Shown here: positions 19,945 to 45,951 of the stretch, piece by piece
Numbering within the stretch: position 1 is the first letter of the stretch
How the letters are laid out: every line of letters begins with the position of its first letter
Assembly (NCBI GenBank): GCA_964355135.1
Contig: CAYHCG010000006.1
Span: 9,453 to 73,452, forward strand
Direction of reading: 5' to 3'
Origin: Candidatus Woesearchaeota archaeon
GTDB taxonomy: Archaea > Nanobdellota > Nanobdellia > Pacearchaeales > GW2011-AR1
Length of the DNA stretch: 64,000 bases
The notes under the pieces: generated by a model
What the model was told of the DNA's origin: nothing
What the model saw: only the letters and a program-made list of their open reading frames with translations
Databases searched by the model: none
Translations under genes and position numbers: made by a program

Positions 19945-20006
19945 ATTTTAGGTTTTTAGGATTTGTTTTGGGCGAAACATTTTAAATTTTAATACACGTG
20001 AGAAAT

Positions 20007-20111
20007 CTCCAATCTTTAGATTGGAGTTATTTGCTGTCGATTTTTCCCGGTTCTCCCCAAATCCCTAGCAAACTCCACACTTTAGTGTGGAGTACAAATC
20101 CGAAGGATTTG
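20007..20111. repeat. three short hairpins, two of them a covarying pair CTCCANNC-TTTA-GNNTGGAG
   Basis: CTCCAATC-TTTA-GATTGGAG at 20007-20026. CTCCACAC-TTTA-GTGTGGAG at 20073-20092. CAAATCC-GAA-GGATTTG at 20095-20111. Confidence 0.6.
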
Positions 20112-20343
20112 GTGATATAAAAGAAAAATGGAGTTTTAACTGCTAAATTACTACTTATTATGTATGATAATATAACATGTAATAAGTAAGAAAGTTGGCA
20201 TTTTAAGCAACATTTATAAAGCAAAAATAACACTAAATAAGTATATTTTGGGGTGTAAAAACAATGTTAAATTTAGGGGCGCAAATAATTAGAAATTCCG
20301 AATTTTTTAATTCAAAATATTTTTATTTAATCTTTAAGAAAAG

Positions 20344-29410: not shown

Positions 29411-30769
29411 TTATGCAAGTCTCTTTCTTTCTCTGCCTTGGTAAACTAAAGTTCCAGCTGTAAGAGTTAATAGTGCTAAGATTCCTGCTCCCCATGTTGA
29501 TACTGTTGGGATTGCTTGGTTATTTCCTTGATAAAGTTTATAAAATTCAGCGACATCAATTGGACCATTTGAATTAACCCAGAATACTTGTTTTTCTATG
29601 TCAGATAATTGCTCTCCATTTCTTTCTTTATCCAATGCTATTAACATAGCATTTTGGTCAACATCGTTAACTGTACCATCATTATTAGAGTCTCCAAATG
29701 GGGCAAATGCACCACAGTAGTGTCTTTCTGAACCATTAACAGTTACACACTTTCCATCTCCTATAAAAGGAGAACCAAAAAGAGGTCTTCTAGACCAGGT
29801 TACTTTTGCATCATTTGAATCTTCGCTTGCGACGTTGTTGCCTGCAGGCCAGACGTCCGATAAATATTGACCGTTCCATAAATATCCCGGAGCAGGATTA
29901 TTTGCAATGTTCATTTCTCCATTTCTGGAAGGAACTCCTGCTGATGCAACTCTCCCTTGGCTTCCAAGAATTGGCCCTGGGGTGCCGGTAAGAACGTTAT
30001 TTGGTACGGTTACTCCATTCATATCTATGTTAATATTTCCACCAAAACTGCCAAGACCCAAAACAATATTTTGACCAGAGGCAACGCTTCCGACAGTATA
30101 AAGTGGAGGTGAATATACAACTCCGGAAATTTGTTCAAAAGTATTGTTGCTGACTTGTGCCCAAGCTTTTTGATCATTGACTGCAGTACCGCTAGATTCA
30201 TCAAAGATTCCTCCTGCAAAAACTGCCCTTATGTAATTACTATCAACGATTACGGATGGAAGGGAGTTGGGACCGAAGACGTCTTTGTTCGTCCACTTAA
30301 TTCCTGTTTCGACATTTTGGATCGTGTTGCCTTGAATAATAATTGGATTAGAAGGATCAAAATTAGCATCAAGTGTTACTCCATGTTGTGCATTTTCCAT
30401 TATAAAACCATAACTTCCACTATTGATTGAATCTATCCTTAATGTTGTACCAGAGGTAACAGTCGCACCTCTCAATATTACGCTACCATCGGCAACTAAG
30501 TCAACTCCTTGATTGTTTAAATAAAATTTTGCACCTTGGACTTGGGGAAGTTGATAGGTTCCTGCGGCGAAATGGACGTCTTCGCCGGAGACGGCAGATG
30601 CGATTGTATTATTGATATCTGTATACGACATAGAATTATCAACGAATTTATCAGCATAAGCTTTTGTGCCTGCGAAATAAGAAGAACCGAGAGCTGCAGT
30701 AACGGCTAGATATTTACCAAGGTTACGACCGGTGCTCTTTACACTTTTTACGATATCGTTTAGTGCCAT
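29411..30769 (-). CDS. secreted parallel beta-helix protein with dockerin/EF-hand-like loop and PEP-CTERM-like C-terminal sorting signal
   Basis: Signal peptide ...AGTKAYA. Repetitive beta-helix-like segments (IQGNTIQNVETGIKW etc.). DSNNDGTVNDVDQNAMLIALD. C-terminus IPTVSTWGAGILALLTLTAGTLVYQGRERKRLA. Confidence 0.7.
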   Translation of the reverse strand: MALNDIVKSVKSTGRNLGKYLAVTAALGSSYFAGTKAYADKFVDNSMSYTDINNTIASAVSGEDVHFAAGTYQLPQVQGAKFYLNNQGVDLVADGSVILRGATVTSGTTLRIDSINSGSYGFIMENAQHGVTLDANFDPSNPIIIQGNTIQNVETGIKWTNKDVFGPNSLPSVIVDSNYIRAVFAGGIFDESSGTAVNDQKAWAQVSNNTFEQISGVVYSPPLYTVGSVASGQNIVLGLGSFGGNINIDMNGVTVPNNVLTGTPGPILGSQGRVASAGVPSRNGEMNIANNPAPGYLWNGQYLSDVWPAGNNVASEDSNDAKVTWSRRPLFGSPFIGDGKCVTVNGSERHYCGAFAPFGDSNNDGTVNDVDQNAMLIALDKERNGEQLSDIEKQVFWVNSNGPIDVAEFYKLYQGNNQAIPTVSTWGAGILALLTLTAGTLVYQGRERKRLA

Positions 30770-30949: not shown

Positions 30950-32209
30950 ATGGAAGCAGTTTTTGAGGAATGGAAGGCATATGCGCAAAAGAAAGGGCTA
31001 AAACTTCGGAACGTAAGTTTAGATAGCATTAAGTCAAATTCTCAATTGAAAATTGTAGCTCTTACTGGATCAAGAAGGGCAGGGAAATCAAGTGTTTTAA
31101 TTTTATTTTACCAGATGCTTTTAAAAAGTGGAAATAAGGCCGCATATATTAATTTAGAAGATAGCCGTATAAAAAACAATAAAGATGTTTTAGATGATAT
31201 TCTTAAATGGTTTGGCGATGAAGGTTATTTGCTCTTAGATGAAATAACAAGCGTTAATGACTGGGAGGGATGGCTTGCAAGAAATCATGAAATGTTAAAA
31301 GGAAAGTTAAATATAATCACTAGCTCCTCAAGAAAAACACTTGCGAAACCTAGTAAACCTTTGCGCGGTAGAATGTTTTATTATGAATTATATCCTTTGT
31401 CATTTAATGAATTTTTACAATTTAAGGAATTAAATATAGAAAAAACTACTTCTGGAATTGGAAGAATAGAAAAAAATCTTGAAGAATATCTTATTTATGG
31501 AGGTTTTCCGGAAGCAGTTTTATTGGAAAATAAAACGGATAAAGTAAACTTATTAAATTCTTATTTTAGAGAAATAATTGGATTAGATGTTGCAGAAATA
31601 GCAAATGAGAAAGTTTCTACTGTTGAATTGTTTGGAAAATATGTTATTAGTTCTCCTTATTTTTCTGCTTCAAAATGTTTGAATTTTTTTAAAAGTTTAG
31701 GATATAAAATAGCAAAACAAACATTGCTTCATTTAGAACAACATTCCCAAGAGGGATATTTATTCTTTTTTGTCCCTATATTCTCTCATACAATGAAAGA
31801 CAGATCTCAGTATCCTAGGAAAGCTTATTCGGGTGATACTGGTTTTTTTTATTCAATAAATGGAAAAGTGGATTGGGGGAGATTATTCGAGAATTGTGTT
31901 TTTTTAACACTAAAGAAAAGGCTGTCTCAAAATCAGGAAATAAATTATTGGAAGAATTCTAAGGGAAATGAAGCAGATTTTATTATTAGGGAAGGTCTAA
32001 CGACAAAGGAAATTATTCAAGTTACTTATGAAATTGAGAATGAAAAGACAAAAGAGAGAGAGATTATAGGGCTTGTAGAATGTGCAAAAGAAGTAGGATT
32101 AAAAAAGGGCCTTATTATAACTAAGGATTACGAAGATAGTGAAGTCTTTAGCGGCATACATATAAAATTTATTCCTTTGTGGAAGTGGCTTCTGGAGGAT
32201 AAGGTCTGA
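30950..32209 (+). CDS. AAA-type ATPase of the COG1373/DUF4143 kind
   Basis: Walker A LTGSRRAGKSS, Walker B YLLLDEIT. The 419-aa length and C-terminal layout are typical of this family. Confidence 0.75.
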   Translation: MEAVFEEWKAYAQKKGLKLRNVSLDSIKSNSQLKIVALTGSRRAGKSSVLILFYQMLLKSGNKAAYINLEDSRIKNNKDVLDDILKWFGDEGYLLLDEITSVNDWEGWLARNHEMLKGKLNIITSSSRKTLAKPSKPLRGRMFYYELYPLSFNEFLQFKELNIEKTTSGIGRIEKNLEEYLIYGGFPEAVLLENKTDKVNLLNSYFREIIGLDVAEIANEKVSTVELFGKYVISSPYFSASKCLNFFKSLGYKIAKQTLLHLEQHSQEGYLFFFVPIFSHTMKDRSQYPRKAYSGDTGFFYSINGKVDWGRLFENCVFLTLKKRLSQNQEINYWKNSKGNEADFIIREGLTTKEIIQVTYEIENEKTKEREIIGLVECAKEVGLKKGLIITKDYEDSEVFSGIHIKFIPLWKWLLEDKV

Positions 32210-32572: not shown

Positions 32573-33553
32573 ATGAAAAAGGGGATAAAATGGAGGCATG
32601 TTGCTTTTCTAGGCGCTGCTTTGACTATGTTGTTTATTGTTGGAATGAGTTTTGCTTCTGCTGGAATTGTGGATTGGTTTGGGAAGGTGACTGGACACGC
32701 TACTTCACAAGATACTAACGTAACGGTTACAGTTTCTGGGACTACTGCTGTCACGATTGAAGTTTTGAACAGCACTCTAACGGGAGTTAATCCAACATCT
32801 GACAGCACGACTGCTGTTACCTTAACAGTTAGAGTTACCGATGCGGACGGGTATTTGGATATTAATACAACAAGCGTTCATGCTAACTTTACAAAGTCCG
32901 GAGAGGCCATAAGATCCAATAGTTCTTGCGTTGATCTTGCGCAGAATACGGCTACAGCTAAGAATTTTTCCTGTATCCTTTCTATGTGGTATTTTGACGG
33001 CAGCGGAATCTGGTCTATAACCGCTGCGGGAAGAGATTTAGGAAACACGACGCTAGTACAAAATACAACTAGTGTTTTTACATATGGCACTTTACAAGAA
33101 ATAAAAATGAGTCCTAATCAGATAACTTTTGCCTCTGTTGCGCAGGGAGCAGTCAATATAACTTCAGATAACGATCCTACTTTGATAAATAACAGCGGAA
33201 ACTATAATTTTGTAGGAGTCAATATCACTGCTGTAAATCTTAGGGGAGAAACTAATACTACTGTTTTCATCAATGTAGGTAATATTACAATAGGAAATAA
33301 TACTCATGCTTCGAATAAATATGAGTGCGATGTTGCTCCAGTTTTAGGTTCAAATGCTACCGCACTAGTGAATGGAACAACAGTTAATGTAAAGCACAGC
33401 GTTATTAGTAAGGGGAATAATTCTGTTAACGATGGGACAACTGGTCAGGAGCAGATTTATTATTGTTTTAGAACTATTCCAACAGGCATACTTTCACAAG
33501 CATATTCGACAGCTTATACAGGAGGAGCGTGGGTTGTTTCCGCGAATGTATAA
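32573..33553 (+). CDS. secreted Ig-like protein, stand-alone paralog of the terminal MWYFD module of the giants
   Basis: Signal peptide ...MSFASAG. NFSCILSMWYFDGSGIWSITAAGRD and GQEQIYYCFRTIP...AYST parallel giant A (NFTCTIGMWYFDVAGDWNVSIY; GQEQLYLCLKQIP...TYST). Confidence 0.8.
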   Translation: MKKGIKWRHVAFLGAALTMLFIVGMSFASAGIVDWFGKVTGHATSQDTNVTVTVSGTTAVTIEVLNSTLTGVNPTSDSTTAVTLTVRVTDADGYLDINTTSVHANFTKSGEAIRSNSSCVDLAQNTATAKNFSCILSMWYFDGSGIWSITAAGRDLGNTTLVQNTTSVFTYGTLQEIKMSPNQITFASVAQGAVNITSDNDPTLINNSGNYNFVGVNITAVNLRGETNTTVFINVGNITIGNNTHASNKYECDVAPVLGSNATALVNGTTVNVKHSVISKGNNSVNDGTTGQEQIYYCFRTIPTGILSQAYSTAYTGGAWVVSANV

Positions 33554-33554
33554 A

Positions 33555-34094
33555 ATGAATAAATATCGATTGCTTATCTTGCTCTGTGTATTGTCTGTAA
33601 TTGGCTTGAGTGTAAATGCTAATGCTGTCGGGATTGCATATAATGACTTTTTATGCCCGGATAGACCCATTATTCTATATGAAGGCGAAGAGAGAACTGT
33701 AAGCTTATGGCTACAGAATTCCAATGTCGAAGATGAAAAAGTCAGAGTAAAGATTCTTAACAATGAAGAAGGAATTATCGACATTAACGAAAAAGATTAT
33801 GTAGTAGAAGCTGGAACATATGATACTGAACTGAAGTTCAAGCTAAGAATTCCAGAAAATGTTTCACTAGGGACTCGCTATGATATGGTTCTTAATTTCT
33901 TAAATGTTCCAATGGAAGAAACTGGCGGAATAGCACTAACTACGGCAATGAATGTAAATGTCTGTGTCCAGGTTGGAGAATACGTCGCCACATCGCCTCC
34001 TCCAGGATTTAGTACAACTACATGGATTATCTTGGCGATAATAGCAGTAGTAATTTTAGCGGCAATTATAATTTTCATAAGAAAAAAGAAATAG
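33555..34094 (+). CDS. small secreted beta-sandwich protein with C-terminal TM and basic tail (family member 1)
   Basis: Start set at MNKYRLL. Signal peptide. CPDRP...NVCVQV Cys pair. C-terminus WIILAIIAVVILAAIIIFIRKKK. Paralogous to 34133.. and 40648... Confidence 0.75.
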   Translation: MNKYRLLILLCVLSVIGLSVNANAVGIAYNDFLCPDRPIILYEGEERTVSLWLQNSNVEDEKVRVKILNNEEGIIDINEKDYVVEAGTYDTELKFKLRIPENVSLGTRYDMVLNFLNVPMEETGGIALTTAMNVNVCVQVGEYVATSPPPGFSTTTWIILAIIAVVILAAIIIFIRKKK

Positions 34095-34132
34095 TTAAAC
34101 AGTTTTAAATATTGAAGAGGATTAGTTAGATT

Positions 34133-34690
34133 ATGAAGAGGAAAATTTTATTATGTCTCATTTTATTGTTGAGCTTGCTATTTGTAAGAAATGTCTTGGC
34201 ATTCGGTGTGGCTTATGCTGATTTTAGATGTCCTGACAATCCTCTAAAATTATTTCCGGGTCAGGAAAAGATAACTAGCCTATGGCTGCAAAACATGGCC
34301 GATGATGATGCAAGTGTCGCCGTTATTCTTAGAGAGGGCGCAGGCATAGCTGAAATGGAAACTCAAAATTACCTGGTCAAATCTAAAACAGAGGATACTA
34401 GCGTTCCTATCACTTTTAAAATTCCTGAAGATGAACCTATAGGTGCGAATCATACCGTTGTTATCGCTTTTGATACTATAATAGATGGAGAAAGCGGAGG
34501 AGTTGCTATCGGAACAGGAATGGACGTTAAAGTCTGTGTTCAGATTGTACCAGAGTATCCTGTTGAACTCTCTCCTGTGGATAAAGAAAGTGGGAAAGCA
34601 TGGTACTATGTGATTGGATTCGTGATTTTAGCTGCATTAATTGTAGTTTTTGTGGTAAGAAGAAAGAGGGCAAATAAGTCTTTGAGGTAA
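34133..34690 (+). CDS. small secreted beta-sandwich protein with C-terminal TM and basic tail (family member 2)
   Basis: Signal peptide. AYADFRCPDNP...GGVAIGTGMDVKVCVQIV aligns with the preceding gene. C-terminus YYVIGFVILAALIVVFVVRRKR. Confidence 0.75.
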   Translation: MKRKILLCLILLLSLLFVRNVLAFGVAYADFRCPDNPLKLFPGQEKITSLWLQNMADDDASVAVILREGAGIAEMETQNYLVKSKTEDTSVPITFKIPEDEPIGANHTVVIAFDTIIDGESGGVAIGTGMDVKVCVQIVPEYPVELSPVDKESGKAWYYVIGFVILAALIVVFVVRRKRANKSLR

Positions 34691-34824
34691 ATCATATAAA
34701 TTAAGCTCTAATTAATACAGAATAAGACAAATCTAATACGTTTTAATGGAGAAAAAGGCTTAAAATGGTAAGTTTTATATAGCATTTTTCATACAATATA
34801 AGCATAAGAGAGCTTAATATTGCA

Positions 34825-37800
34825 ATGACTGAAAAAATTGATTTTCTAAATGAGAAAAGAAAGGAATTACTGGAAAGAATTAATGTTGCGCAAAATTACA
34901 AAAAAGAAGTTGGCGAAAAAGTTCAGAAACTTGCAGCAAGATTTAGCATAGGAGAACTGAATTTTTTTGAGTATCATCAGGAACTGAAGAAAAATTTTGG
35001 AGATAAGTCGCCTGCTGATTGGATCGAGTACTATGACAAGTATATTGAAAAGTGCCGCACGGAGCTTAAAAAGTGCGGCGAAGAAATAAACGAGTTGAGA
35101 ATAAAAAAAGTTGCAAGATTTTCTCCTTTGATTTTGGTTATTTTTATCTTTGCACTAGTTCTTTATTATAATTTTAAAGATAGTTCTATCTTACTTTCAC
35201 CTTCCGAAATATTCACTGAAAAAATAAATTTTGTGGCTAGTGAAGATGGTTCATTTATGTTTGAGCCACAACAGGGAGGGAGACTTAGCAGTTTGAGAAT
35301 TTCAGGAGATATTAATGGAGGAGGAAATGTTAAAATTTATCTCCAAGCGAATGGAAATGAATTATTGATTTTAGATAGCGACGCTATAGGGTATAAAGGA
35401 ATAAGCGGGCTTGCAATAGAAGAATTCGATAGAGTTCTTGATGAAAATGAAAGTATTGAGAAAAATGCAACTATTTTAGTGGAAGAGAATATTGAAACTA
35501 TTGAAGTTAACGATAGTTTAGATGATATAGAAAATAAAACTGAAGCTAACTCAGAAATCAAAAAAGGATTTGTTAATTATTGCAATGAAACTTGTGATTT
35601 AGACAGTATTGATTTAGGAGACTCTTATGAAATAAAAATTGTGATAGGGGGAGAGGCCGAGGTTATAATTGAGGAGATTAACTATAAGATTACTAAGAAA
35701 GAGGTAAGAGAAGATATCGAAATAGAAACTCCTAGAAATGAGACAAATCAGACTGTAGTTAGAGATATAGAAAAAATTGAAAGAAAAAATGCACAAGGAA
35801 AAGAAGTAGTTGTGAAGAAAAAGCAAGGCGAGAAAAATATAATTGTAGAGACTACAGTTCCTATTGAGTGGAACGTGAAAGACGCAGGAAAAATCAGAGT
35901 AAGATGGAAAGAAGGAGGAGAAGAAATTAATTTTAATGGTGAAGATACAAATAATGACGGAATTATCGATAGTATTACTTGGGTTGTCAGTGATCTAGAA
36001 AGAGATCAAACTTATGAAATTATTGTGATCACAAAAGCAGAACATCTTGATACTGATAGAAGTTTTGTTAGTGATATTTACGATTTAGTTAAAGAGCAAG
36101 ATGGAGTTTGGAGTGAGAGTATTGGGGATGGAGAGTATGTAAGAGTTACTTTTGAAATCCCCCTTGATAGTACGAGAGATATAACACTCTGGTCTAGAAC
36201 GGTGAGTGGGAATCCTCGCGTTGAAGTGTATGAAACAAATGGAAATGTAACAGTTGCTTCATTTGAAAGTTTGAATGATGACGAATATAATAAGGTTTAT
36301 TTGACGGGACTTTCTGGAACACAAGAGACATTTGATTTGAGAGTTGTTGATGGTTCAATTGAACTCGATCATGTTATTGATCCTTATTTTTCTGATAAGG
36401 TTAAACTGTATTTTAATAATACTGCTACTCCAATTGGAGGAGCATGTCCTACTGGAAATAAAAAAATGGGAACTGCTGCACCCAACTCTGTTGTTATAAT
36501 CTGGCCTGGAGAGTTTGACAGCGGTGTTCCTGGGAATACGGATGCAGGGCAGTGGTATTCTGGGAGTGTTAACAGAGCAAATACGACATTATCTACTCAA
36601 ATTGCTAGCGCTACCCAGAGTTCAAGAAATTCAAATAGCTTCGGGCAGGGATGGATGTACGATGAGGATTTGACAGGACTGACTTTAGATGCAGGAAACT
36701 TTAGTTTTAATCTTTCTTTGATGGGTGGGCAGATGTCTGCAATAAACAGCGCAGAAAGGATCTTTGCCAGAATAAGTGTTGTTAATTGTAATGGTGGGAA
36801 TTTTAATTTAGTGCAAGATCTCACATCGACCAATATTGTTGGGGAAATAAGTCATACTGGGGGTCAAAACGGGTGGAAGGCAAATGAGGGAGGAAGAATA
36901 AACCATCCAGCTGTTTCTGCCGTCGTAAATGTCAATGTTAATTTTTCAACAAATCCTTATACATTCAAAAATGGGGAGATGTTGTTTATAGAATTGGGAT
37001 TTGGAGATGCTAGTAGCAACATTGATAGAACTATAGGATTGAGATACAATATTGCAAATTCTTTTGTTGTGACTCCTCCGTTTTTAGATAATACTCTGCC
37101 TTATGCTATTTTGAATGAACCTATGAATGACTCTAGATTTGTGGTAGGCGTATTTAACATTTCATTGAATGCAACAGTTGCTGATGAAACTATTTCTGAC
37201 TTGCTAAATGGGGAAATTTATGGGGTGAGAAACGGAAATGAGGCAGATTTTTACAAACATGGATTATTGAGTCGGAGATTTAATTTTACTAATGGAACGC
37301 AGGCGGTTTATAACTGGACTGCTCCTGTTGTAATTCCTGATGCTTCTACTGTTGTATTGTATCATTTAGATAATAATTCAAGATACGGAGAGAGTCAGAC
37401 CGAAGCAGTAGATTATGTTTCCGCGAATGTTAATTTAACTCCCGTCGGGAATGCTTTTCCTAATCAGACTAGCGGAAAGTTTGCAGGAGGGTGGGAATTT
37501 GACGGAAACGGAGACTACTTGGGTGATGCTTCCAATTTAGGGGCATTAAACGGAGTGGATAATGCAACTTTTGCTGCGTGGATAATGAGGGCTGGAGCAA
37601 GTTCTACGGGTCTAGAAGTTATTGTTCAGGAAGGTGGGCAGGGCAGAGGATTGGCACTGATTGCGAACTGCAACAATAACATGATGCAGTTTGGGGTAAA
37701 AGAAGGAGGCGTTTATTATGCTGCTAATGCATCTACTTTCTTGCTTAATGATGAGAACTGGCATCACTTGGCCGGAGTGTATGATGGGGATGCAGACACT

Positions 37801-39702
37801 ATTAAATTATATTTTGATGGTGTTTTAATGAATACTACTATTGCTACTACAGATATTGTAAATCCTGCTGTTGGAATAAGAGTTGGAGGAAGTGGTGGGG
37901 GAATTAGTCAGGGAACTTCATGCGCTTCTTCTAGTGTGGCAAGTTCATTTAATGGGACGATAGATGAAGTAGGAATATGGAATAGTAGCTTGACTGCTAG
38001 TGAAATAAAAGATCTTTATAGATTGAAAGTCGGAAAATATTATTGGAAAACTAACGTAACTGACCAGATTGGAAATAACAATGAAAGCGAGACAAGAGAA
38101 TTTACGGTAATTAATTCCCTACCTATTATATCTGATGTCAATGCAACGAACGTAACGCAGAACTTTGCAATGATCAACTGGACAACAGATTATGAGACTA
38201 ATAGTAGTGTTAATTTTGGCACGAATATGGCTTTGGGAACTAATATAAGTGAAAATATCTTAATCACAAAACATAATATTAGTCTAGCTGGTCTTTTATC
38301 AAATACACTTTATTTTTACAACGTAACTAGCTGCAGTTTTGATAATTTCTGTTCTACTAGCGGAACTTTTAATTTCACTACTTTAGCTTTATCTAATCAG
38401 GCTCCGGTTGTTAATTTTGTTAATTTTACGGATACAGGCGCTGTTCTGGGGGGAGTACAACCTGTTTTAATTAATTTCACTGTAAGCGACCAAAATGGTT
38501 TTGGAGATATAAATGACCCTAGTTCTAAAGTTGAAATTTACAATCTAAGCTTAACTGGCGCAGTAAGAGTAAATTCAACTTGCAGCGCAGTAGGTAATGT
38601 TGATGCAGATACAAGAAATTATAATTGCGTTGTTGGAATGTGGTATTTTGATCCTTATGGAATGTATACAGTGAACGTTACTATAAGAGATAATGCAGGG
38701 GCAAGAGCAGAGAATTCAAGCAGAGTTTTCCAGTTTATAGCTACTCCAGGATTTACTATGTCTCCTAATAGTATTAGTTGGCCTACCTTAAGTCCTGGGC
38801 AGAGCAATATACCGTCTATTGAAAATTTAACAATAAATAATACCGGAAACGTGGCTTTTTACAATGTTAGCATTACTGCTTTTAATCTAACTGGCGTAAC
38901 TGATTCAGGAAATTATATTCCTGCTATGAATTTCTGGGGCGGAGTAAGCTTTAACCAATGCAGCGCTCCTGCGACACAATTGAGAGACGATGGCAGCGTC
39001 AATATAAGTAACGCCTTTCTAAATACTGGGAATTTGTCTATTGGGGCAGGCGCGGGTCAGGAAGAAATATTTTTCTGCCTAGCTAGCGTTCCTGATCCTT
39101 TGCTCAAACAGACTTACTCTACTGAGGTTGGAAATCCCTGGCAAATTGAATTATTTACTGCAGCTTTGGTCTTGAGTGGATCAGTTGGCAGAAAGAGAAA
39201 AAGGAAAATAACTCTGGAAAATGAAGATTTACTTGAACTCTTGGGAGATAGGCTGGAAGAATTACTCGAATTAGTTAAGGCGAACAAATTAAGGGAAAAT
39301 AAGGTTGCAGAAAATAAAGAAATAGTTGTTCCTTTAGATATCTTTAAGCAAGAGGGCGGAGCTGCAGAGTCTTTATGCAAGTATCTTAAAGATAATAAAG
39401 GGATGAAGTTCAGCGAGATTGCGAGATTATTAAAAAGAGACAGAAGAACAATAAGCTTGAATTATAAGAATACGCAGACTAAAATACTGCCAGAGAATTT
39501 TGGCGAAAATGAATTTTACGTTCCTGTACGGATATTCTCCGATCGCAGACTAAGCATACTTGAGAGTCTTGTGTCATATCTAAGAAATAAGGGCTATAAG
39601 AATGTCGAAATTGCAAAAATGCTTGAGCGTGACCAGAGAAATGTCTGGACACTGCACTCCAGGGCAGCTAAAAAATTAAGAGTAGAAAATAAGAATATTT
39701 AA
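34825..39702 (+). CDS. giant surface protein B (1625 aa), paralog of A
   Basis: The N-terminal domain aligns with A (LERINVAQNYKKEVGEKVQKLAARF vs AERIFLAQRYKKEVIEKVQKLVAKL). TM at ~35113-35175. It carries the shared AEHLD module, a LamG unit (~37096-38109; ENWHHLAGVYDG...LYFDGVL; SFNGTIDEVGIWNSSLTASEI) and FN3 (INWTTDYETNSSVNFG...LYFYNVTS). It ends with the MWYFD Ig module, WQIELFTAALVLSGSVG + RKRKRK, and the tail. Confidence 0.9.
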   Translation: MTEKIDFLNEKRKELLERINVAQNYKKEVGEKVQKLAARFSIGELNFFEYHQELKKNFGDKSPADWIEYYDKYIEKCRTELKKCGEEINELRIKKVARFSPLILVIFIFALVLYYNFKDSSILLSPSEIFTEKINFVASEDGSFMFEPQQGGRLSSLRISGDINGGGNVKIYLQANGNELLILDSDAIGYKGISGLAIEEFDRVLDENESIEKNATILVEENIETIEVNDSLDDIENKTEANSEIKKGFVNYCNETCDLDSIDLGDSYEIKIVIGGEAEVIIEEINYKITKKEVREDIEIETPRNETNQTVVRDIEKIERKNAQGKEVVVKKKQGEKNIIVETTVPIEWNVKDAGKIRVRWKEGGEEINFNGEDTNNDGIIDSITWVVSDLERDQTYEIIVITKAEHLDTDRSFVSDIYDLVKEQDGVWSESIGDGEYVRVTFEIPLDSTRDITLWSRTVSGNPRVEVYETNGNVTVASFESLNDDEYNKVYLTGLSGTQETFDLRVVDGSIELDHVIDPYFSDKVKLYFNNTATPIGGACPTGNKKMGTAAPNSVVIIWPGEFDSGVPGNTDAGQWYSGSVNRANTTLSTQIASATQSSRNSNSFGQGWMYDEDLTGLTLDAGNFSFNLSLMGGQMSAINSAERIFARISVVNCNGGNFNLVQDLTSTNIVGEISHTGGQNGWKANEGGRINHPAVSAVVNVNVNFSTNPYTFKNGEMLFIELGFGDASSNIDRTIGLRYNIANSFVVTPPFLDNTLPYAILNEPMNDSRFVVGVFNISLNATVADETISDLLNGEIYGVRNGNEADFYKHGLLSRRFNFTNGTQAVYNWTAPVVIPDASTVVLYHLDNNSRYGESQTEAVDYVSANVNLTPVGNAFPNQTSGKFAGGWEFDGNGDYLGDASNLGALNGVDNATFAAWIMRAGASSTGLEVIVQEGGQGRGLALIANCNNNMMQFGVKEGGVYYAANASTFLLNDENWHHLAGVYDGDADTIKLYFDGVLMNTTIATTDIVNPAVGIRVGGSGGGISQGTSCASSSVASSFNGTIDEVGIWNSSLTASEIKDLYRLKVGKYYWKTNVTDQIGNNNESETREFTVINSLPIISDVNATNVTQNFAMINWTTDYETNSSVNFGTNMALGTNISENILITKHNISLAGLLSNTLYFYNVTSCSFDNFCSTSGTFNFTTLALSNQAPVVNFVNFTDTGAVLGGVQPVLINFTVSDQNGFGDINDPSSKVEIYNLSLTGAVRVNSTCSAVGNVDADTRNYNCVVGMWYFDPYGMYTVNVTIRDNAGARAENSSRVFQFIATPGFTMSPNSISWPTLSPGQSNIPSIENLTINNTGNVAFYNVSITAFNLTGVTDSGNYIPAMNFWGGVSFNQCSAPATQLRDDGSVNISNAFLNTGNLSIGAGAGQEEIFFCLASVPDPLLKQTYSTEVGNPWQIELFTAALVLSGSVGRKRKRKITLENEDLLELLGDRLEELLELVKANKLRENKVAENKEIVVPLDIFKQEGGAAESLCKYLKDNKGMKFSEIARLLKRDRRTISLNYKNTQTKILPENFGENEFYVPVRIFSDRRLSILESLVSYLRNKGYKNVEIAKMLERDQRNVWTLHSRAAKKLRVENKNI
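39190..39699 (+). other. C-terminal tail of giant B with two sigma70-region-4/LuxR-like HTH units
   Basis: Unit 1 is about 39321-39487 (AAESLCKYLKDNKGMKFSEIARLLKRDRRTISLNYKNTQTK). Unit 2 is about 39513-39677 (LSILESLVSYLRNKGYKNVEIAKMLERDQRNVWTLHSRAAKKL). Confidence 0.65.
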
Positions 39703-39740
39703 AAATACAAAAGTTGTATATCTACTAAGAGAAGAGGAAA

Positions 39741-40646
39741 GTGGTAAACAAAATTTCGTTATTTGTCAGCATAATTATTGTAATTGCCGTTGGGACTTTG
39801 GTATTCTTGCTTTTTGGAGCAGGGAATAATTTGATTAGATTCTCTCCTTCTCCTTTTAATGTGAGTGTGCAGGTTGGGAACTCTCCTCCTGTAGTTAACC
39901 TTGTCAGCTTTACTAATCAGCCGGCTGTCGTTGGCGGAGTACAACCTGTATTAATCAATTTTACGGTTAGGGATTCTAATTTAGTTACTGATTTAAATGA
40001 TTCAACTGCAAGAGTTGAAATATACAATCTAAGCTTAACTGGCGATGTACGAGTAAATTCAACTTGTGATGTTGTAGTAGACCTAGACGCAGACACAAGA
40101 AATTATAATTGCGCTGTTGGAATGTGGTATTTTGATCCTTATGGAATGTATACAGTGAACGTTACTATAAGAGATAATGCAGGGGCAAGAGCAGAGAATT
40201 CAAGCAGAATTTTCCAGTATATAGCTACTCCGAGCGCAGTTATTTATCCTAATGCATTGAGCTGGGATCCTATCGCTGTAGAGGATGTTGATAAGCCATC
40301 AAATAATGACCCTCTGATTTCAAATAATACTGGAAATGTTGATTTCAATACTTTGACTTTAACCGCCTTTAACTTGCCTGGGTCTATAACTTCTAATAAA
40401 TTTATTTATGCGGGCAACTTTAGCGTTAATGTTGCAGATAACTGCTTAGGCGGAGATATGATGGCAAATAATACAGGCGTTGGTTTAAGTGGGGGAGCAT
40501 TATTAATTGGTAACTTATCTAGTGGGGGAGGAATTGCGCAAGAAAATCTCTATTTCTGCATAAAGGCAATCAATTCTGATACTCCTGCGGAAACATTTTC
40601 ATCATCAAACACGGGAGGAATTGCGTGGAATCTTGATTTTAGCTAA
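39741..40646 (+). CDS. secreted/anchored Ig-like protein, paralog of the terminal MWYFD module of giant B
   Basis: GTG start. N-terminal hydrophobic MVNKISLFVSIIIVIAVGTLVFLLF. GGVQPVLINFTV...RNYNCAVGMWYFDPYGMYTVNVTIRDNAGARAENSSR is nearly identical to giant B. Confidence 0.8.
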   Translation: MVNKISLFVSIIIVIAVGTLVFLLFGAGNNLIRFSPSPFNVSVQVGNSPPVVNLVSFTNQPAVVGGVQPVLINFTVRDSNLVTDLNDSTARVEIYNLSLTGDVRVNSTCDVVVDLDADTRNYNCAVGMWYFDPYGMYTVNVTIRDNAGARAENSSRIFQYIATPSAVIYPNALSWDPIAVEDVDKPSNNDPLISNNTGNVDFNTLTLTAFNLPGSITSNKFIYAGNFSVNVADNCLGGDMMANNTGVGLSGGALLIGNLSSGGGIAQENLYFCIKAINSDTPAETFSSSNTGGIAWNLDFS

Positions 40647-40647
40647 T

Positions 40648-41220
40648 ATGAACAATAAAATAATAACTTGGGCAGGGTATTTTTTGGTATTCTTAAGTGT
40701 ACTAATATTAATTGCTAGAGTAGATTCTTTAGGAGCAGCAATTGAATGCGCGCCAAGAACTCCTTGTACAATGTATGCGGGAGAGGAGAGAATATTCAAT
40801 ATTCCTTTGCAGTCTTCTCCAGGAGAGGGAGATACCAGGGTAAGATTTGAGTTGATAGATAATGCGGGAGGAATTGCCGAAATTGTTGGAGATAGTGAAT
40901 TTGCGGTCCCTGCTGGTAGTACAGATGTCAATGCTCGCTTAAGAATTAAGATTAGAGAAGATGCGACTACAGTAGAGCATATCAATGTGATTATAAAATT
41001 CAGTGAAATCCCTGCTGAGAGTGATGGGCAAGTAGGCCTGTCTCCAAGTTTTACTATGCCCTTTGCTATTACTGTGGGGGGAGTGGTCCCTCCAGTAGCA
41101 GTTGAAAAGAAGGAAGGTTTTGGCGCAGGTGGAGCTTTCTTTTTGGCAGTTATGCTAGTACTAGTTGTTTTAGTAGCTATTACATTTGTTTTGGTCAAGA
41201 ATAAAAAAGAGTTAAACTAA
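40648..41220 (+). CDS. small secreted beta-sandwich protein with C-terminal TM and basic tail (family member 3)
   Basis: Start set at MNNKIITW. The AGGIAEIVGDSEF... layout parallels 33555 and 34133. C-terminus FFLAVMLVLVVLVAITFVLVKNKK. Confidence 0.7.
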   Translation: MNNKIITWAGYFLVFLSVLILIARVDSLGAAIECAPRTPCTMYAGEERIFNIPLQSSPGEGDTRVRFELIDNAGGIAEIVGDSEFAVPAGSTDVNARLRIKIREDATTVEHINVIIKFSEIPAESDGQVGLSPSFTMPFAITVGGVVPPVAVEKKEGFGAGGAFFLAVMLVLVVLVAITFVLVKNKKELN

Positions 41221-41311
41221 AAGCTATAGTTTTTCATGTTTTTAATAGAATTTATAACAATATTTAAATACTATAAAACACTACAAAACATAGTAAAAAA
41301 CAATATTGACA

Positions 41312-41551
41312 ATGGTAAAGGCGACAATAGAAATTCCGGAACGAGAAGATAGAATATTGAATATAGTTAAAGGTAAATATGGATTTAAGAATAAAACAGA
41401 AGCTTTGATTTTTATTGTAGCCGATTATGAAAAGAGTTTAGAACCTCAACTTAGACCCCAATATCTGAAGAAACTTAAAAAAATAGACAAGCAAAAAGGC
41501 ATCCCCTTTAACAACATTGAAGAGTTAAGAAATATGATTGAGAAGGATTAA
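41312..41551 (+). CDS. small antitoxin-like protein upstream of the RelE/ParE-like gene
   Basis: 80 aa (MVKATIEIPEREDRILNIVKGKYGF...). Ends 1 nt before the toxin ATG. Confidence 0.5.
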   Translation: MVKATIEIPEREDRILNIVKGKYGFKNKTEALIFIVADYEKSLEPQLRPQYLKKLKKIDKQKGIPFNNIEELRNMIEKD

Positions 41552-41552
41552 A

Positions 41553-41828
41553 ATGTATAATTATGAGATCAAACCCAATCTTGGGGCAATTCTTAAAAAA
41601 TTATCTAAAAAAGACAAAGTTCAATATTTAGCTCTTATGAATAAAATTCAGGAAATTATTAACTCTGGAAATATTGAGCATTATAAAAATCTCAAATATG
41701 ATTTAAGCGCATTCAAAAGGGTTCATGTGATGGGAAGTTTTGTATTGATTTTCAAGTATGATAAGAAAAATAACATTATTTCTTTCGAAGACTATGATCA
41801 TCATGATGTTATTTATGGAAAGAGATGA
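41553..41828 (+). CDS. RelE/ParE-family toxin-like protein
   Basis: About 91 aa. The layout with the KRVHVMGSFVLIFKYDKKNNIISFEDYDHHDVIY C-terminus is typical of RelE/ParE-fold toxins. Confidence 0.6.
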   Translation: MYNYEIKPNLGAILKKLSKKDKVQYLALMNKIQEIINSGNIEHYKNLKYDLSAFKRVHVMGSFVLIFKYDKKNNIISFEDYDHHDVIYGKR

Positions 41829-42320: not shown

Positions 42321-44258
42321 ATGAAGATGATTAATAATAAGGGTTTGAGTAGCGCAGTCATTATTACTCTTAGCGTTTTGCTAGTTATCGGCGCTACGGT
42401 TATAGTTTGGGAATTTATAGGGCCGGTTATAAAACATTTACGAGGGATAAATACTTTTTCTCCGACAGGCAATCTTTCTAGCGAGACTTCGGGAGACTGT
42501 ACATTAACAGAAGCAAACTGGAATAATGATAGTGGCCTAGAGGGAGAAACTCTTGGAATGAGTGTTGAAGGCGAGAATTGTGAAGGCAAAGAAATAACGT
42601 TTAGAGTTTTTGAAGGGGATTCTTCTAATGGGGATGATGATGTCAACCTTGCTCCTTCGCCTGATAAAGCGATATTTATCAATGGAAAAGCCGAGACTGT
42701 GTGGGTAGCTGAGTGGCAGGCTGACTGTAATGGATTATGCAATCCCCCTGAATACTTTTTTGAAGCTTCTCTATCTGAGCAAAAAATAGAAAGCAATTTA
42801 ATTGAAATCGGAAGGACAGAGGGAGACTTGTCCCCTTTAGAAGACTGCAAGACTATAAAGTATCACGGGGATGGAAGAGTGGACATTGTAATATTTGCCG
42901 AGGAGACCATTGCTAACCAATATGCAGAACACATGCTTAGCTTTTCTCCTTTAAATGAAAATAGAGGCGCATTTAACTTTTATTATATTGATGATTATAC
43001 TCCAGATTGTGAAATTTACAAGGGTATTGCTTTGTTATGCAGATCGAAAGAAATGGTAAAGAGAGCTGCATCCTGTCCTAATGATTATATTATGGTTGTT
43101 GAAAGTCATCCTAGCTATGTAAGAAGCTCTGCCTTTATGAATGTGATGAGTATTAATTCTAATTTACCTCCTGCAGAGGTTGTTCAGCATGAATTTGGAC
43201 ATGTTTTTGCTGCATTGGCTGAGGAATATACCCCAGCTATCTTGCCTAAAAACTCTAAAAATTGCGTTGAGAGTTGTGACGAATTTAACGTTAAGGATGG
43301 TTGTTATCAGGGATGTTCAAAAGGAGAGTTTTATAGATCGATAGAAAACGGTGTAATGAGAACATTATCTTCTAATGATTTTGGTATTTTTAACAAAAAA
43401 CTAATTTTAGAAAGATTAGAAGACTCTGTTTCTTCAAGTGTGCCAATAACCGGGGGAGTAATATTGGATCCTAGTGCATGCAATCAAGAAAATTATTATC
43501 TAATTGAGGGAAAATATGACGCCAGTACAAATGAGTTAGACTTGCATAAGGCGACTCTTCAACCTGGCTGCGCGGGTACTAATGGATATGGTGATGTTGA
43601 ATATACTATCATTGAAGACGGAGACGATATAATCGTGGAAGGAAGTTTTAATCCGGTATATATTTTTAGCGATGGAATTGGAGAAGAAGGAGTTAACGGA
43701 GAAATTGAGGGCGATACTTTCGTAAATGAAAAAGAGTTTTACTTGAAAATTCCTAAGCCTGCTACAAATGGAACTAATCTAACTATTTATCCTCCTCAGG
43801 GCGGAGGACCAAGCGGGACATGCTTCTTGCCTGATACGATGATTATTACCCCAAGTGGAAATAAAATGATCAAAGATATTAAAGAAGGAGATGTAGTAGT
43901 AAGTTATAATGAAGCAACTGGCGAGAGGGAAAACAACGCAGTAACAAAAGTATTCAGACATCAAACTGACTCTTACTTAATTATCAATGGTAAATTGAAG
44001 GTGACCGCAGAACATCCTATGATGGTTAATGGAATATGGCAGGAGATTGGCAAGGCTAGAGTAGGAGATGCGTTACAGACTGCAGATGGGCAGCATGTCG
44101 TATACTCGATAGAAGACGTAGAAGAAAGTGTTGAAGTATTCAATTTAGAAGTTGAACGTGATCACACTTATTATGCAGAAGGGTACTTAGCGCATAATAA
44201 GGGGCCTGGAGGGTTAAGCACTCATTTAACTGTAGGTGAGGACGAGTACATTCTTTAA
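42321..44258 (+). CDS. signal-anchored zinc metalloprotease (HEFGHVFAALAEEY, M64-like by eye) with C-terminal Hint domain
   Basis: N-terminal hydrophobic AVIITLSVLLVIGATVIVW. HExxH plus EEY. C-terminal CFLPDT...TAEHP...YLAHN. Confidence 0.85.
   Translation: MKMINNKGLSSAVIITLSVLLVIGATVIVWEFIGPVIKHLRGINTFSPTGNLSSETSGDCTLTEANWNNDSGLEGETLGMSVEGENCEGKEITFRVFEGDSSNGDDDVNLAPSPDKAIFINGKAETVWVAEWQADCNGLCNPPEYFFEASLSEQKIESNLIEIGRTEGDLSPLEDCKTIKYHGDGRVDIVIFAEETIANQYAEHMLSFSPLNENRGAFNFYYIDDYTPDCEIYKGIALLCRSKEMVKRAASCPNDYIMVVESHPSYVRSSAFMNVMSINSNLPPAEVVQHEFGHVFAALAEEYTPAILPKNSKNCVESCDEFNVKDGCYQGCSKGEFYRSIENGVMRTLSSNDFGIFNKKLILERLEDSVSSSVPITGGVILDPSACNQENYYLIEGKYDASTNELDLHKATLQPGCAGTNGYGDVEYTIIEDGDDIIVEGSFNPVYIFSDGIGEEGVNGEIEGDTFVNEKEFYLKIPKPATNGTNLTIYPPQGGGPSGTCFLPDTMIITPSGNKMIKDIKEGDVVVSYNEATGERENNAVTKVFRHQTDSYLIINGKLKVTAEHPMMVNGIWQEIGKARVGDALQTADGQHVVYSIEDVEESVEVFNLEVERDHTYYAEGYLAHNKGPGGLSTHLTVGEDEYIL
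43821..44198 (+). other. Hint (intein/Hedgehog-type) domain, 126 aa, followed by a 19-aa tail
   Basis: Cys1 in GT|CFLPDTMIITP (block A), KVTAEHPMMV (block B TxxH), VFNLEVERDHTYYAEGYLAHN (blocks F/G, terminal HN). The +1 residue is Lys. Confidence 0.8.
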
Positions 44259-44292
44259 ATGTAAATTTTAAATAGATAGCTTATTGTTTAGT

Positions 44293-45951
44293 ATGATGAA
44301 AAAGAGGATTTGCATAGGGTTTTTAGTTTTGGTATTTTTTTCTATGTTAACTGTCAAGGCTGAAACTGCATTTTCTCCACAGTTTAATGTCACGGTTAGT
44401 GTGGTTGGGTTACCTAGTCTTGTTGTTGAAAGTCCTCGCAATGAAACTTATTTTTCAAATGAATCATTAAAATTGAGGGTTTTAAGCAATGGAGACTTAA
44501 TTTGGCACAATCTAGATAATGGATTTAATTTTACTTACAACGGAGAAATCGATCTAGCTGCTACAGAAGGGGGACATGTTTTACATGTTTTTGCAAATAA
44601 TAGTTACGGGACTAGTAAGAAGAACGTTAGTTTTAATGTCAATTTAAGTCTCTTTAGAATTATATATGGGGAGTATAATGGCTCCTTTAAAGGAAATTCG
44701 ACTGATTTTAATGGTTTTAGTTTTAATCAAATACAGAATTTAGGCGGAATAATCTTAGAAAATACAAATTATGGGAAAATAACTTTCTTAGAAAACGTGA
44801 ACTTAACAGCGGATGCTAATGAATCGGATAAGACATTGAATCTGGATGCTTATAGTGAACTTAGTTTTAATAAAATTGAACTGGATACTCAAAACTTGCC
44901 TAATTTTAACAAGGGCGCAACTTTGATTTTTTACAATTTACCCTTTACGAATCCTAGAATTTTATTAAATGGGGCTGAGTGTCCTTTAACTGTTTGTACC
45001 TTATTAAGTTATAGTGGGGGAACCTTAGTATTTAATGCAAACTCTTTAGGGAGCTTTTCCATTGAAGAGGTTGTTGCACCTATAGATAATTCTGGGACGG
45101 GTACTTCTGGAGGGGGCGGAAGTTCGGGCGGAAGCTTTGGAAGCGTTTTAGTGAGAAATGAGTTTTCTATAGATAAAGAAAATATAGCTTTATCCCTAAA
45201 AAAGAGCACTGCGAGAAGAGAGCAGTTTATCATAGAAAATACCGCTAATAAAGATTTGAACATAAAGATAACTCATAATCTGGGCGATTTCTTAAGGTTG
45301 AATGAAAAAGAATTTATCCTTAAAAAGGGAGAGAAGAAAATTATTTTGGCTGATTTTCTGGTTCTAGAAGACAAGAAAGAGGATATTTATCTTGGTAAAA
45401 TAATTGTATCGAGTCAAAGTACTACAAAGGAAGTTCTTGTCGCAATTGAAGTTGAATCTAGAAACCCCTTATTTGATATTAAAGTATCGATTCCAGAAGA
45501 TTATCTGAAAATTAAGCCGGGAGGGGAACTCGTTGCAGAAGTTAGCTTATTGAATATAGAAAGAGTTGGAATAGTCGATACAGAGATAAATTACATAATT
45601 AAGGATAGTGAAGACAACATTGTTCTAAATGAACATGAAACTGTGGCTGTGGAAACTCAATCAAGTTTTGTGAAGAAATTTAGGCTAGCAGGAACTCTCA
45701 AAGAAGGAGAATATGTATTGTATGCTAATGTAGCTTACTCTGGACAAGTAGGGAGTAGCAGCGCATTTTTTATGATTGACAAGGGCAAAGAAATTTCTCC
45801 ACGGTTAGCGTATATTTTAATTTTGTTGATTGTCTTGCTTACACTTATCTTATTTATTATAAAACGTCGTAAAAAAGATGATCAAAATCCTCCAAATAAA
45901 AAACAAGGAAGAAGGAGAAAGTTTTACTCTTCAACATTAAATAAAGATTGA
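44293..45951 (+). CDS. secreted beta-rich protein with Gly-rich linker and C-terminal TM plus basic tail
   Basis: Signal peptide FLVLVFFSMLTVKAET. Linker GTGTSGGGGSSGGSFGS. C-terminus LAYILILLIVLLTLILFIIKRRKK. The C-terminal half resembles 61584..62786. Confidence 0.7.
   Translation: MMKKRICIGFLVLVFFSMLTVKAETAFSPQFNVTVSVVGLPSLVVESPRNETYFSNESLKLRVLSNGDLIWHNLDNGFNFTYNGEIDLAATEGGHVLHVFANNSYGTSKKNVSFNVNLSLFRIIYGEYNGSFKGNSTDFNGFSFNQIQNLGGIILENTNYGKITFLENVNLTADANESDKTLNLDAYSELSFNKIELDTQNLPNFNKGATLIFYNLPFTNPRILLNGAECPLTVCTLLSYSGGTLVFNANSLGSFSIEEVVAPIDNSGTGTSGGGGSSGGSFGSVLVRNEFSIDKENIALSLKKSTARREQFIIENTANKDLNIKITHNLGDFLRLNEKEFILKKGEKKIILADFLVLEDKKEDIYLGKIIVSSQSTTKEVLVAIEVESRNPLFDIKVSIPEDYLKIKPGGELVAEVSLLNIERVGIVDTEINYIIKDSEDNIVLNEHETVAVETQSSFVKKFRLAGTLKEGEYVLYANVAYSGQVGSSSAFFMIDKGKEISPRLAYILILLIVLLTLILFIIKRRKKDDQNPPNKKQGRRRKFYSSTLNKD

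Follow-up and report, generated by a model that had tools for sequence, protein, structure and literature searches.

Giant LamG-rich surface proteins, stand-alone copies of their Ig module and small anchored proteins make up a conserved gene cassette of DPANN archaea

DPANN archaea are tiny, mostly uncultivated and thought to live attached to other microbes, and how they recognize and attach to their hosts is an open question. In a 64,000-nucleotide (nt) stretch of contig CAYHCG010000006.1 from a Candidatus Woesearchaeota archaeon (hereafter the window, with positions counted from its first letter), genes for giant proteins lie next to genes for an immunoglobulin-like (Ig) protein and for small anchored proteins. 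A preliminary description of positions 32573-41220 had read this order as a repeated cassette encoding modular surface complexes, in which a giant adhesin or sensor is joined by soluble or anchored subunits built from its own terminal domain. What is this arrangement, and what might its products do? We find that the region contains two copies of a conserved surface-protein gene cassette of Woesearchaeota, Pacearchaeota and Nanoarchaeota (DPANN archaea). The cassette consists of a giant, a stand-alone copy of the giant's Ig module, one or two small anchored proteins and, usually, an anchored multi-sandwich protein of ~560 amino acids (aa). No description of it was found in the literature on DPANN giant surface proteins, LamG and WxLIP, and it represents a concrete, widespread, previously unannotated candidate for DPANN host-attachment machinery.

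The open reading frames were found where the preliminary description had placed them, and its gene order and coordinates for cassettes A and B stand. As it had proposed, the cassette is a repeated, evolutionarily conserved unit, and all of its products are surface or membrane proteins. What it had missed are a tandem helix-turn-helix (HTH) tail on the giants, a fourth gene, and gene conversion. The elements of the two cassettes, all on the plus strand, are as follows; domain limits come from BLASTP, Pfam and our own hidden Markov models (HMMs).

20411-29299, plus: giant A, 2962 aa (Laminin_G_3, E 3e-43; own HMMs for the Ig module, igmod, 2e-121, and for the tail, hthtail, 5e-62)
27887-28705, plus: two-domain "MWYFD" Ig module of A, membrane-proximal, aa 2493-2765 (BLASTP and own HMM)
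28709-28765, plus: hydrophobic stretch and polybasic cluster of A, ILVGVFAVGGGINRKRKKK, a putative stop-transfer membrane segment
28922-29284, plus: tandem HTH tail of A, sigma-70-region-4/LuxR-type (own HMM, Pfam)
32573-33553, plus: Ig1, 326 aa, signal peptide and stand-alone copy of the giant's Ig module, a paralogue of the module of A
33555-34094, plus: s1, 179 aa (182 aa from the alternative start at 33546), signal peptide, PapD-like beta-sandwich, membrane segment and KKK tail
34133-34690, plus: s2, 185 aa, the modelled member of the small family
34825-39702, plus: giant B, 1625 aa, with the architecture of A
38356-39147, plus: Ig module of B, aa 1178-1441 (BLASTP, own HMM and codon comparison)
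38631-38724, plus: 94-nt tract in B over the MWYFD region, identical to 40115-40208
39151-39207, plus: short hydrophobic and polybasic segment of B, LFTAALVLSGSVGRKRKRK
39316-39675, plus: tandem HTH tail of B (Sigma70_r4_2, 28.2 bits against a cut-off of 25.7 when scanned alone)
39741-40646, plus: Ig2, 301 aa, N-terminal helix/signal, disordered aa 27-50 and two complete beta-sandwiches
40115-40208, plus: partner copy of the 94-nt conversion tract, in Ig2
40648-41220, plus: s3, 190 aa, a divergent small-family member

Cassette B is compact, with 38 nt between giant B and Ig2 and 1 nt between Ig2 and s3. In cassette A, the order Ig1, s1, s2 agrees with the preliminary description, whereas Ig1 does not directly follow giant A: a minus-strand gene (29411-30769) and a gene for an AAA_14/DUF4143 ATPase (30950-32209) intervene, and the same interruption is present in a relative, locus L009.

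Conservation of the gene order was examined from two sides. On the giant side, an alignment of giant C-termini (A4) yielded 44 DPANN loci from species-representative genomes, in which Ig module, small family and tail were located with our HMMs. Of the 23 evaluable giants that carry both module and tail, 21 have an Ig and/or small-family gene behind them, usually 20-60 nt away. On the small-gene side, 80 metagenome loci were collected with a degenerate DNA pattern for the PGE-x7-LQNMVG core, a sampling blind to Ig and giant genes. Here, an Ig-module gene lies directly 5' of the small gene in 71 of 77 evaluable cases (67 stand-alone, 1 partial and 3 giants); three of the remaining small genes stand behind another small gene and three behind something else. 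The spacing between Ig and small gene ranges from -30 to +200 nt, a 21-nt overlap being common. For the 41 stand-alone Ig genes with an evaluable upstream neighbour, that neighbour is an HTH-ending giant in 23, a small gene in 8 (tandem pairs), an Ig gene in 7 and something else in 3. Variants of the order include giant, small, Ig, small (L023) and giant, Ig, small, small (L030, L009 and, with its interruption, cassette A of the window). All relatives of the cassette come from Woesearchaeota, Pacearchaeota or Nanoarchaeota, as metagenome-assembled or single-cell genomes. The synteny is far beyond chance, and the expectation that the gene order would recur in relatives is borne out in dozens of them.

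Giants A and B share one architecture: an N-terminal cytoplasmic region of ~95 aa, a membrane segment (aa 96-114), an ectodomain rich in lectin-like LamG and in Ig domains, the Ig module, a short segment and the tail. Pfam matches to Laminin_G_3 exceed the threshold in both giants (in three stretches of A; E 2e-19 in B), which places this lectin-type domain in their ectodomains. The Ig module is the last extracellular module and not, as had been thought, the protein terminus. Behind it come the hydrophobic and polybasic segment, short and kept in all 26 giants compared, and then ~160-180 residues with two HTH domains. PF08281 matches 18 of 18 members of the tail family (best E 3.7e-12), identifying the domains as sigma-70 region 4-type HTHs, and a search of PDB sequences with the HTH profile returned RNA polymerase sigma-H only (E 0.005). 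No sigma region 2 was found in the tail; the matches are tandem region-4-type only, apart from Sigma70_ECF in one of the 18 members (E 1.4e-3).

The HTH pair is far commoner as a free-standing protein, with 399 relatives, the best 120 of which are mostly ~170 aa long; in the loci examined, the free-standing proteins have no membrane segment. In at least 11 loci such a gene lies immediately 5' of a giant gene, often overlapping it. Locus L040 illustrates this split arrangement, with an HTH gene, a giant, a stand-alone Ig gene and a small gene in succession; its giant begins with the cytoplasmic domain and the membrane segment described above, stops exactly where the Ig module does and lacks a C-terminal anchor. 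Because the free-standing form is cytoplasmic, the fused tail should be cytoplasmic as well, and the hydrophobic and polybasic segment, although unusually short, would therefore have to cross the membrane. Both ends of giants A and B would accordingly lie in the cytoplasm, so that giant surface proteins appear to be wired to DNA-binding domains. The link between HTH pair and giant is broader than the cassette, because HTH genes also precede giants without an Ig module. An HTH-pair gene lies directly 5' of a giant without a detected Ig module in L031, L033, L037, L038, L041, L049 and L050; no Ig or small gene follows the giant in these seven loci, though several of the giants are cut off at the locus end. 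The 1627-aa giant of L037 has an HTH gene on both sides, and in L016 (5210-11821) and L028 the membrane segment of the giant is followed by two HTH-pair tails in a row, with four HTH domains in all.

Where does the stand-alone Ig protein come from? In an all-against-all BLASTP comparison, Ig1 matches residues 2497-2765 of A (E 1e-53, 40% identity) and Ig2 matches residues 1186-1434 of B (E 2e-76, 53% identity). The paralogy on which the preliminary description had built is thus confirmed, and the stand-alone protein is a derivative of the module in the giant. The Ig genes are complete and encode signal peptides as well as conserved pairs of Cys. Most of the proteins have a typical signal-peptidase site (…SAG-Φ-x-D-W…, with predicted cleavage between A and G) and no other anchor, and the mature protein should therefore be soluble unless it is held. 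In an AlphaFold 2 model of Ig2 (mean predicted local distance difference test score, pLDDT, 86.7), both Ig domains are predicted to be complete, with pLDDT >90 and no strand missing. Foldseek found for this model no more specific PDB match than generic tandem Ig/FnIII proteins, among them RbmA, integrin legs and mastigonemes. The best of these, Vibrio cholerae RbmA (E 2e-4, TM 0.2-0.26), represents a generic fold likeness with no sequence relation. RbmA is a secreted tandem FnIII biofilm scaffold that dimerizes and bridges cell surfaces.

The giant module and its neighbouring copy have exchanged sequence. When the stand-alone Ig protein was compared with 45 other module sequences, the module of the cognate giant ranked first in 11 of 17 cassettes, and these 11 cognate pairs are 51-79% identical, compared with ~40-48% to other stand-alone copies. 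The high rank of the cognate module is explained by conversion tracts seen at the codon level. In the window, the 94-nt exact tract sits within ~145 nt at 98% identity (38603-38747); exact tracts of 329 nt (L011) and 326 nt (L019) were found elsewhere. Third-codon positions are 100% identical within the exact tracts and 30-45% identical in their flanks. Several groundwater metagenome runs contain the window sequence itself, and in at least three runs, unitigs assembled independently end precisely at the 94-nt repeat, whose own unitig has a raised depth; the repeat is therefore a true two-copy repeat and not an assembly artefact. Older pairs (A/Ig1, L009, L014 and L021) show no tracts, and their Ig genes behave as mutual orthologues (Ig1 is 63% identical to its orthologue in L009). 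Gene conversion between module and adjacent copy has thus recurred, a clean natural case of a domain within a giant gene and a separate neighbouring copy evolving in concert.

The small proteins form one family. BLASTP aligns s1 with s2 (E 2e-34, 41% identity) and s1 with s3 (E 2e-15, 27% identity), and s1-s3 match the family HMM at 4e-42 to 5e-57, so that the significant alignment anticipated in the preliminary description was obtained. The three share a signal peptide, a beta-rich core with a GG(I/V)A region, a C-terminal hydrophobic helix of ~20 residues and a Lys/Arg tail, all of which had been noted before; the early Cys and the Cys of V-C-V-Q, listed with them, are lineage-specific and missing from the family consensus. 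Members are ~170-200 aa long and consist of one beta-sandwich with a PGE-x7-LQN core, a signal peptide, an anchor and a basic tail, encoded behind an Ig-module gene. With only four outside relatives from a word-indexed search, the family at first looked rare; when it was searched exhaustively with a profile, 1,457 clusters at 50% identity emerged (E<=1e-3), of which 1,121 reach E<=1e-10, so the scarcity of relatives in the first search reflects its limited sensitivity. The best 150 clusters are full-length matches of 152-271 aa, mostly 170-200 aa. No Pfam model covers the family, and s1-s3 have no Pfam match. It is one of three protein families without a Pfam model that are defined here, and the one with more than 1,000 sequence clusters. 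Homology of the small family to the Ig module was considered and rejected (hhalign, 41% over 19 columns). The idea that the subunits were built from the giant's terminal domain therefore survives for the Ig protein, which is paralogous to the giant module, and fails for the small proteins, which are unrelated to it.

In an AlphaFold model of s2 (pLDDT 78), a signal helix precedes a single beta-sandwich with seven to eight strands, and a membrane helix closes the chain. Its Foldseek matches in the PDB are of the PapD-like/ASH/MSP kind: the PapD-like domain of CEP192 (E 3e-5), the Enterococcus faecium WxLIP structures 9i1y and 9i25 (E ~1e-4, TM 0.5) and the chaperones of chaperone-usher systems (CsuC, Caf1M, FimC and FaeE; E ~4e-4).

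These folds and the gene order invite comparison with known systems. In the WxL clusters of Gram-positive bacteria, a large protein with binding domains at its N-terminus and a module X at its C-terminus, a small X-only protein and an anchored Ig-like WxLIP that binds X together form a surface complex (PMC10599100). The logic of the cassette is alike in this layout, and the fold of WxLIP resembles the s2 model without detectable sequence homology. The WxL/WxLIP (Csc) clusters also differ from the cassette. Pfam scans of Ig1, Ig2, A and B found no WxL domain or W-x-L motifs, and the module of the cassette is a tandem Ig pair; WxLIP consists of DUF916 (PGBD), DUF3324 (HBD) and a C-terminal helix, whereas s1-s3 have one domain and a membrane segment; and the large protein of the cassette is itself anchored in the membrane at both ends and has cytoplasmic HTHs, in archaea that have no peptidoglycan to bind. 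Chaperone-usher pili (PapD/FimC, FimH) share with the cassette a PapD-like small protein and an adhesin whose last module is homologous to a separate subunit. Their chaperone is soluble and has two domains, whereas the s2 model is a single sandwich with a membrane helix; they depend on an usher and an incomplete Ig fold, whereas the Ig2 domains are predicted to be complete and the cassette contains no usher-like gene.

On the side of the regulator, the split loci resemble extracytoplasmic function (ECF) sigma/anti-sigma pairs such as FecI-FecR, in that a gene for a region-4-type HTH protein lies 5' of, or overlaps, that of a single-pass membrane protein. In the split loci this membrane protein is the giant, with ~95 aa in the cytoplasm at its N-terminus and a large part outside; no anti-sigma domain was recognized in it. 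The cassette differs in that its regulator comprises two region-4-like HTHs without region 2 and in that, in the window, the HTH pair is fused to the giant's C-terminus via a second membrane segment. To our knowledge, archaea have no sigma factors. The covalent attachment of a DNA-binding domain to the membrane, together with an outer domain for sensing or adhesion, also recalls the membrane-bound one-component regulators ToxR and CadC and regulators of the Notch type, which are released by proteolysis; the HTH type is another one, the cassette giant has a giant ectodomain and carries the domain as a C-terminal tail, and cleavage and DNA binding are putative in its case. SPEARE proteins of Nanohaloarchaeota, reportedly introduced by Hamm et al. 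in 2019, are said to be very large multi-domain surface proteins (LamG-like domains included) of nano-sized archaea that depend on a host, with a proposed role in host contact. Their domain sets differ from those of the cassette giants, and we are aware of no giants of this type for which an HTH tail, a separate copy of a module or a PapD-like partner has been reported. Because for each a defining feature was looked for and is missing, the cassette falls outside the WxL/WxLIP, chaperone-usher and ECF sigma/anti-sigma families; by analogy, it seems most like WxL clusters in layout and most like sigma/anti-sigma operons in the adjacency of regulator and receptor.

Based on these findings, we lean, with restrained confidence, towards a reading in which the products of the cassette form a cell-surface attachment or sensing complex. 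The small anchored protein would bind the free Ig protein 1:1 and hold it at the membrane. This role as an anchor is suggested by the PapD/WxLIP-like fold of the small protein, by the near-obligatory and often overlapping pair of Ig and small genes, and by the Ig protein being the sole product without an anchor. The free Ig protein would in turn pair with the homologous juxtamembrane module of the giant; the contacts are read from gene linkage, and they give the Ig protein two candidate partners, the small anchor and the giant module. Small protein, Ig protein and giant module may together make up the base of the complex, much as WxLIP holds WxL-domain proteins on Gram-positive surfaces, while repeated gene conversion would keep the module in the giant similar to its neighbour. 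A link from the giant to transcription may be provided by the HTH pair, either tethered, as in the fused form of the window, or as the product of a separate partner gene, as in the split form elsewhere. The pair could act as a tethered regulator, as a released regulator or through anti-sigma-like sequestration.

Several observations weigh against this reading. The hydrophobic stretch behind the Ig module spans only ~8-14 residues past the last beta-strand, which is short for a membrane helix, and the anchors of the small family measure ~20. The Foldseek matches of the s2 and Ig2 models are generic beta-sandwiches with modest TM-scores. A motif after the signal peptide, ITGxAT, occurs also on proteins with their own anchor, and is therefore not specifically a docking peptide for anchor-less proteins. 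In L007, L020 and L026, the giant is followed by a small gene without an Ig gene; L096 and L132 contain tandem Ig-small arrays without an adjacent giant; and L001, whose giant is the closest relative of A (66% identical), has no Ig1 and a truncated s1. The last case indicates that the accessory genes can be lost.

The same arrays and losses would be expected if the Ig, small and fourth genes were an accessory unit of their own, for example a wall or S-layer-associated scaffold, often merely parked beside giants in a surface-protein island; the HTH tail of the giants would then be a common fusion to a regulator and have no part in sensing. Ig-small pairs without an adjacent giant, the 18 of 41 Ig genes with another upstream neighbour, the loss of Ig1 from L001 with retention of its giant, and the HTH-pair genes preceding giants without an Ig module (L037, L050) agree with such independence. 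We nonetheless consider it rather unlikely, because the Ig protein is paralogous to the giant's own module and recombines with it; accessory genes also lie downstream of nearly all module-bearing giants, at the short distances given above. A donor-strand-exchange pilus or fibre, in which the Ig proteins are pilin-like subunits, the small protein is an anchored chaperone and the giant is the adhesin or base (as FimH is to FimA/FimC), would account for the match of the s2 model to chaperone-usher chaperones, for the paralogy of adhesin and subunit, for the conserved N-terminal extension of the Ig proteins, which is disordered in the monomer model (aa 27-50), and for the loci with tandem Ig-small arrays. 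We judge it improbable, because the Ig folds are predicted to be complete, the small protein has a single domain, against two in PapD chaperones, and is anchored in the membrane, and no usher-like gene occurs in the cassette; moreover, an outer membrane is absent from archaea, both ends of the giant are anchored, and gene spacing and number suggest a 1:1 ratio and not a catalytic chaperone. Nor does it seem at all probable that the Ig gene serves mainly as a conversion donor or acceptor that diversifies the giant module, for antigenic or host-range variation, without being a structural partner. Clear conversion tracts between giant module and adjacent copy in several species, and the first rank of the cognate copy in most cassettes, are what such a system would leave behind; yet the conversion homogenizes the copies and does not diversify them, and the Ig genes are full genes tightly coupled to the small gene. 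Each giant has a single donor, and the module is membrane-proximal, the least exposed part of the giant.

An extension of the attachment or sensing complex is more tentative, and we regard it as doubtful: the cassette may be a contact-sensing signalling device of episymbiotic DPANN archaea, whose HTH pair is activated or released on contact. The giant would be the receptor, with its lectin-rich ectodomain engaging the host surface. The HTH pair would be held at the membrane, covalently in the fused form or, in the split form, by the giant's N-terminal cytoplasmic domain in an anti-sigma-like manner. The secreted Ig paralogue and the PapD-like anchor might form a regulatory collar round the module, with conversion keeping the pairing surfaces matched. 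If this holds, archaea would possess an analogue of sigma/anti-sigma or Notch-type signalling across the membrane, with giant adhesins as its building blocks. A search for operators of the HTH pair found no convincing DNA motif common to the regions upstream of A, Ig1, B and C; the 11-mer TACAAATCCGA alone is common to those upstream of A and of Ig1 (at 32463). The 134-nt spacer 5' of giant B contains an archaeal TATA-like box, TTTTATATA.

The functional unit extends past 32573-41220, as a fourth gene and the position of the gene after it indicate.

44284-45951, plus: fourth cassette gene, 555 aa, signal peptide, beta-sandwich domains, membrane segment and basic tail
45998-47416, plus: 472-aa anchored surface protein with the ITGxAT post-signal motif, as in Ig1

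Homologues of the fourth gene lie directly 3' of the small gene in 54 of 87 evaluable cases, and the 472-aa protein has a homologue at the same position in L010. In the window, the fourth gene is ~3 kb from s3, the gap being filled by inserted genes: a small-gene pair, a DoxX-like membrane protein and an M64/PT-HINT protein. The 44284-45951 protein has a weak PapD-like match (Cep192_D6); as a relative of the small family it was rejected on a weak score (58%). The inserted pair, at 41306-41828 (plus), consists of two overlapping small genes (81 aa, DUF2683-like; 96 aa) that look like a toxin-antitoxin pair, and in the equivalent cassette of L001 HEPN/NTase and DUF4258/DUF2283 pairs are inserted. 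The genes at 42321-44258 (plus) and 47737-50634 (minus) flank the cassette and encode C-terminal PT-HINT/Hint domains, 64% identical over 133 aa; one of the two proteins has a weak peptidase M64 match and the other DUF4215 repeats, and they look like surface proteins of a polymorphic-toxin-like or autoprocessing kind.

The leader motif recurs in several families. A post-signal motif …ITG[KRE]AT…N[IV][ST]V is common to stand-alone Ig proteins, the fourth-gene family and the 472-aa protein; it was seen in the window at 32573-32700 and 45998-46120 and in L010, L011, L022, L087, L129 and other loci, and is sometimes repeated (ITGKAITGKAT). A second variant, …[FL][AS]P.Q.N[VL][ST]V, is shared by Ig2 and the 44284 protein within cassette B, and likewise by the two genes of L013. 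There are hints that the leader type co-varies within a cassette, window B and L013 being concordant by eye and a regular expression scoring the window pair only. We do not claim such covariation, because the cases that have both the rarer motif and a fourth gene are too few.

A third giant had been described as likewise followed by small anchored proteins, and this parallel does not hold.

52104-62786, plus: giant C (52104-61103) with c1 (61100-61591) and c2 (61584-62786), a looser analogue

Our HMMs found neither an Ig module nor an HTH tail in giant C. c1 was rejected as a small-family member (28%, in the signal region alone); the first domain of c2 is remotely similar to the small family (hhalign, 89%, E 2e-6), and c2 scores 26.1 bits against Pfam WxLIP_HBD, under the cut-off of 28.9. 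The set around giant C thus has a loose similarity only and is not the same cassette. The three giants have in common an N-proximal ectodomain region (A aa 528-881, B aa 283-544 and C aa 488-882; 35-53% identity, E 1e-59 to 2e-69). Giant C is otherwise different, with Cys-rich stretches and Asn-rich repeats (NNITLDG…) that look like those of a right-handed beta-helix.

The wider window encodes a CDC48 ATPase, deoxyhypusine synthase and an intron-containing tRNA, which mark it as archaeal, at a G+C content of ~35%. Given the lineages of the cassette's relatives and the groundwater runs that contain the sequence, its source is a DPANN archaeon living in groundwater. Rfam places a 122-nt tRNA at 12286-12407 (minus; 56 bits) that ARAGORN missed and that presumably contains an archaeal intron. 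The minus-strand gene at 29411-30769, between A and Ig1, encodes a secreted protein of 452 aa whose Asp/Asn loop is dockerin-like and whose C-terminus forms an anchor (hydrophobic segment and RERKR); it is kept at the same interrupting position in L001 (49% identical), and its relatives in L009 and L012 are weaker. The gene at 19540-19944 (plus), ~470 nt 5' of giant A, codes for a member of the PhageMetallopep family (E 1e-17), and three consecutive short perfect palindromes, CTCCAATCTTTAGATTGGAG, CTCCACACTTTAGTGTGGAG and CAAATCCGAAGGATTTG, occur at ~20000-20115 in the same upstream region.

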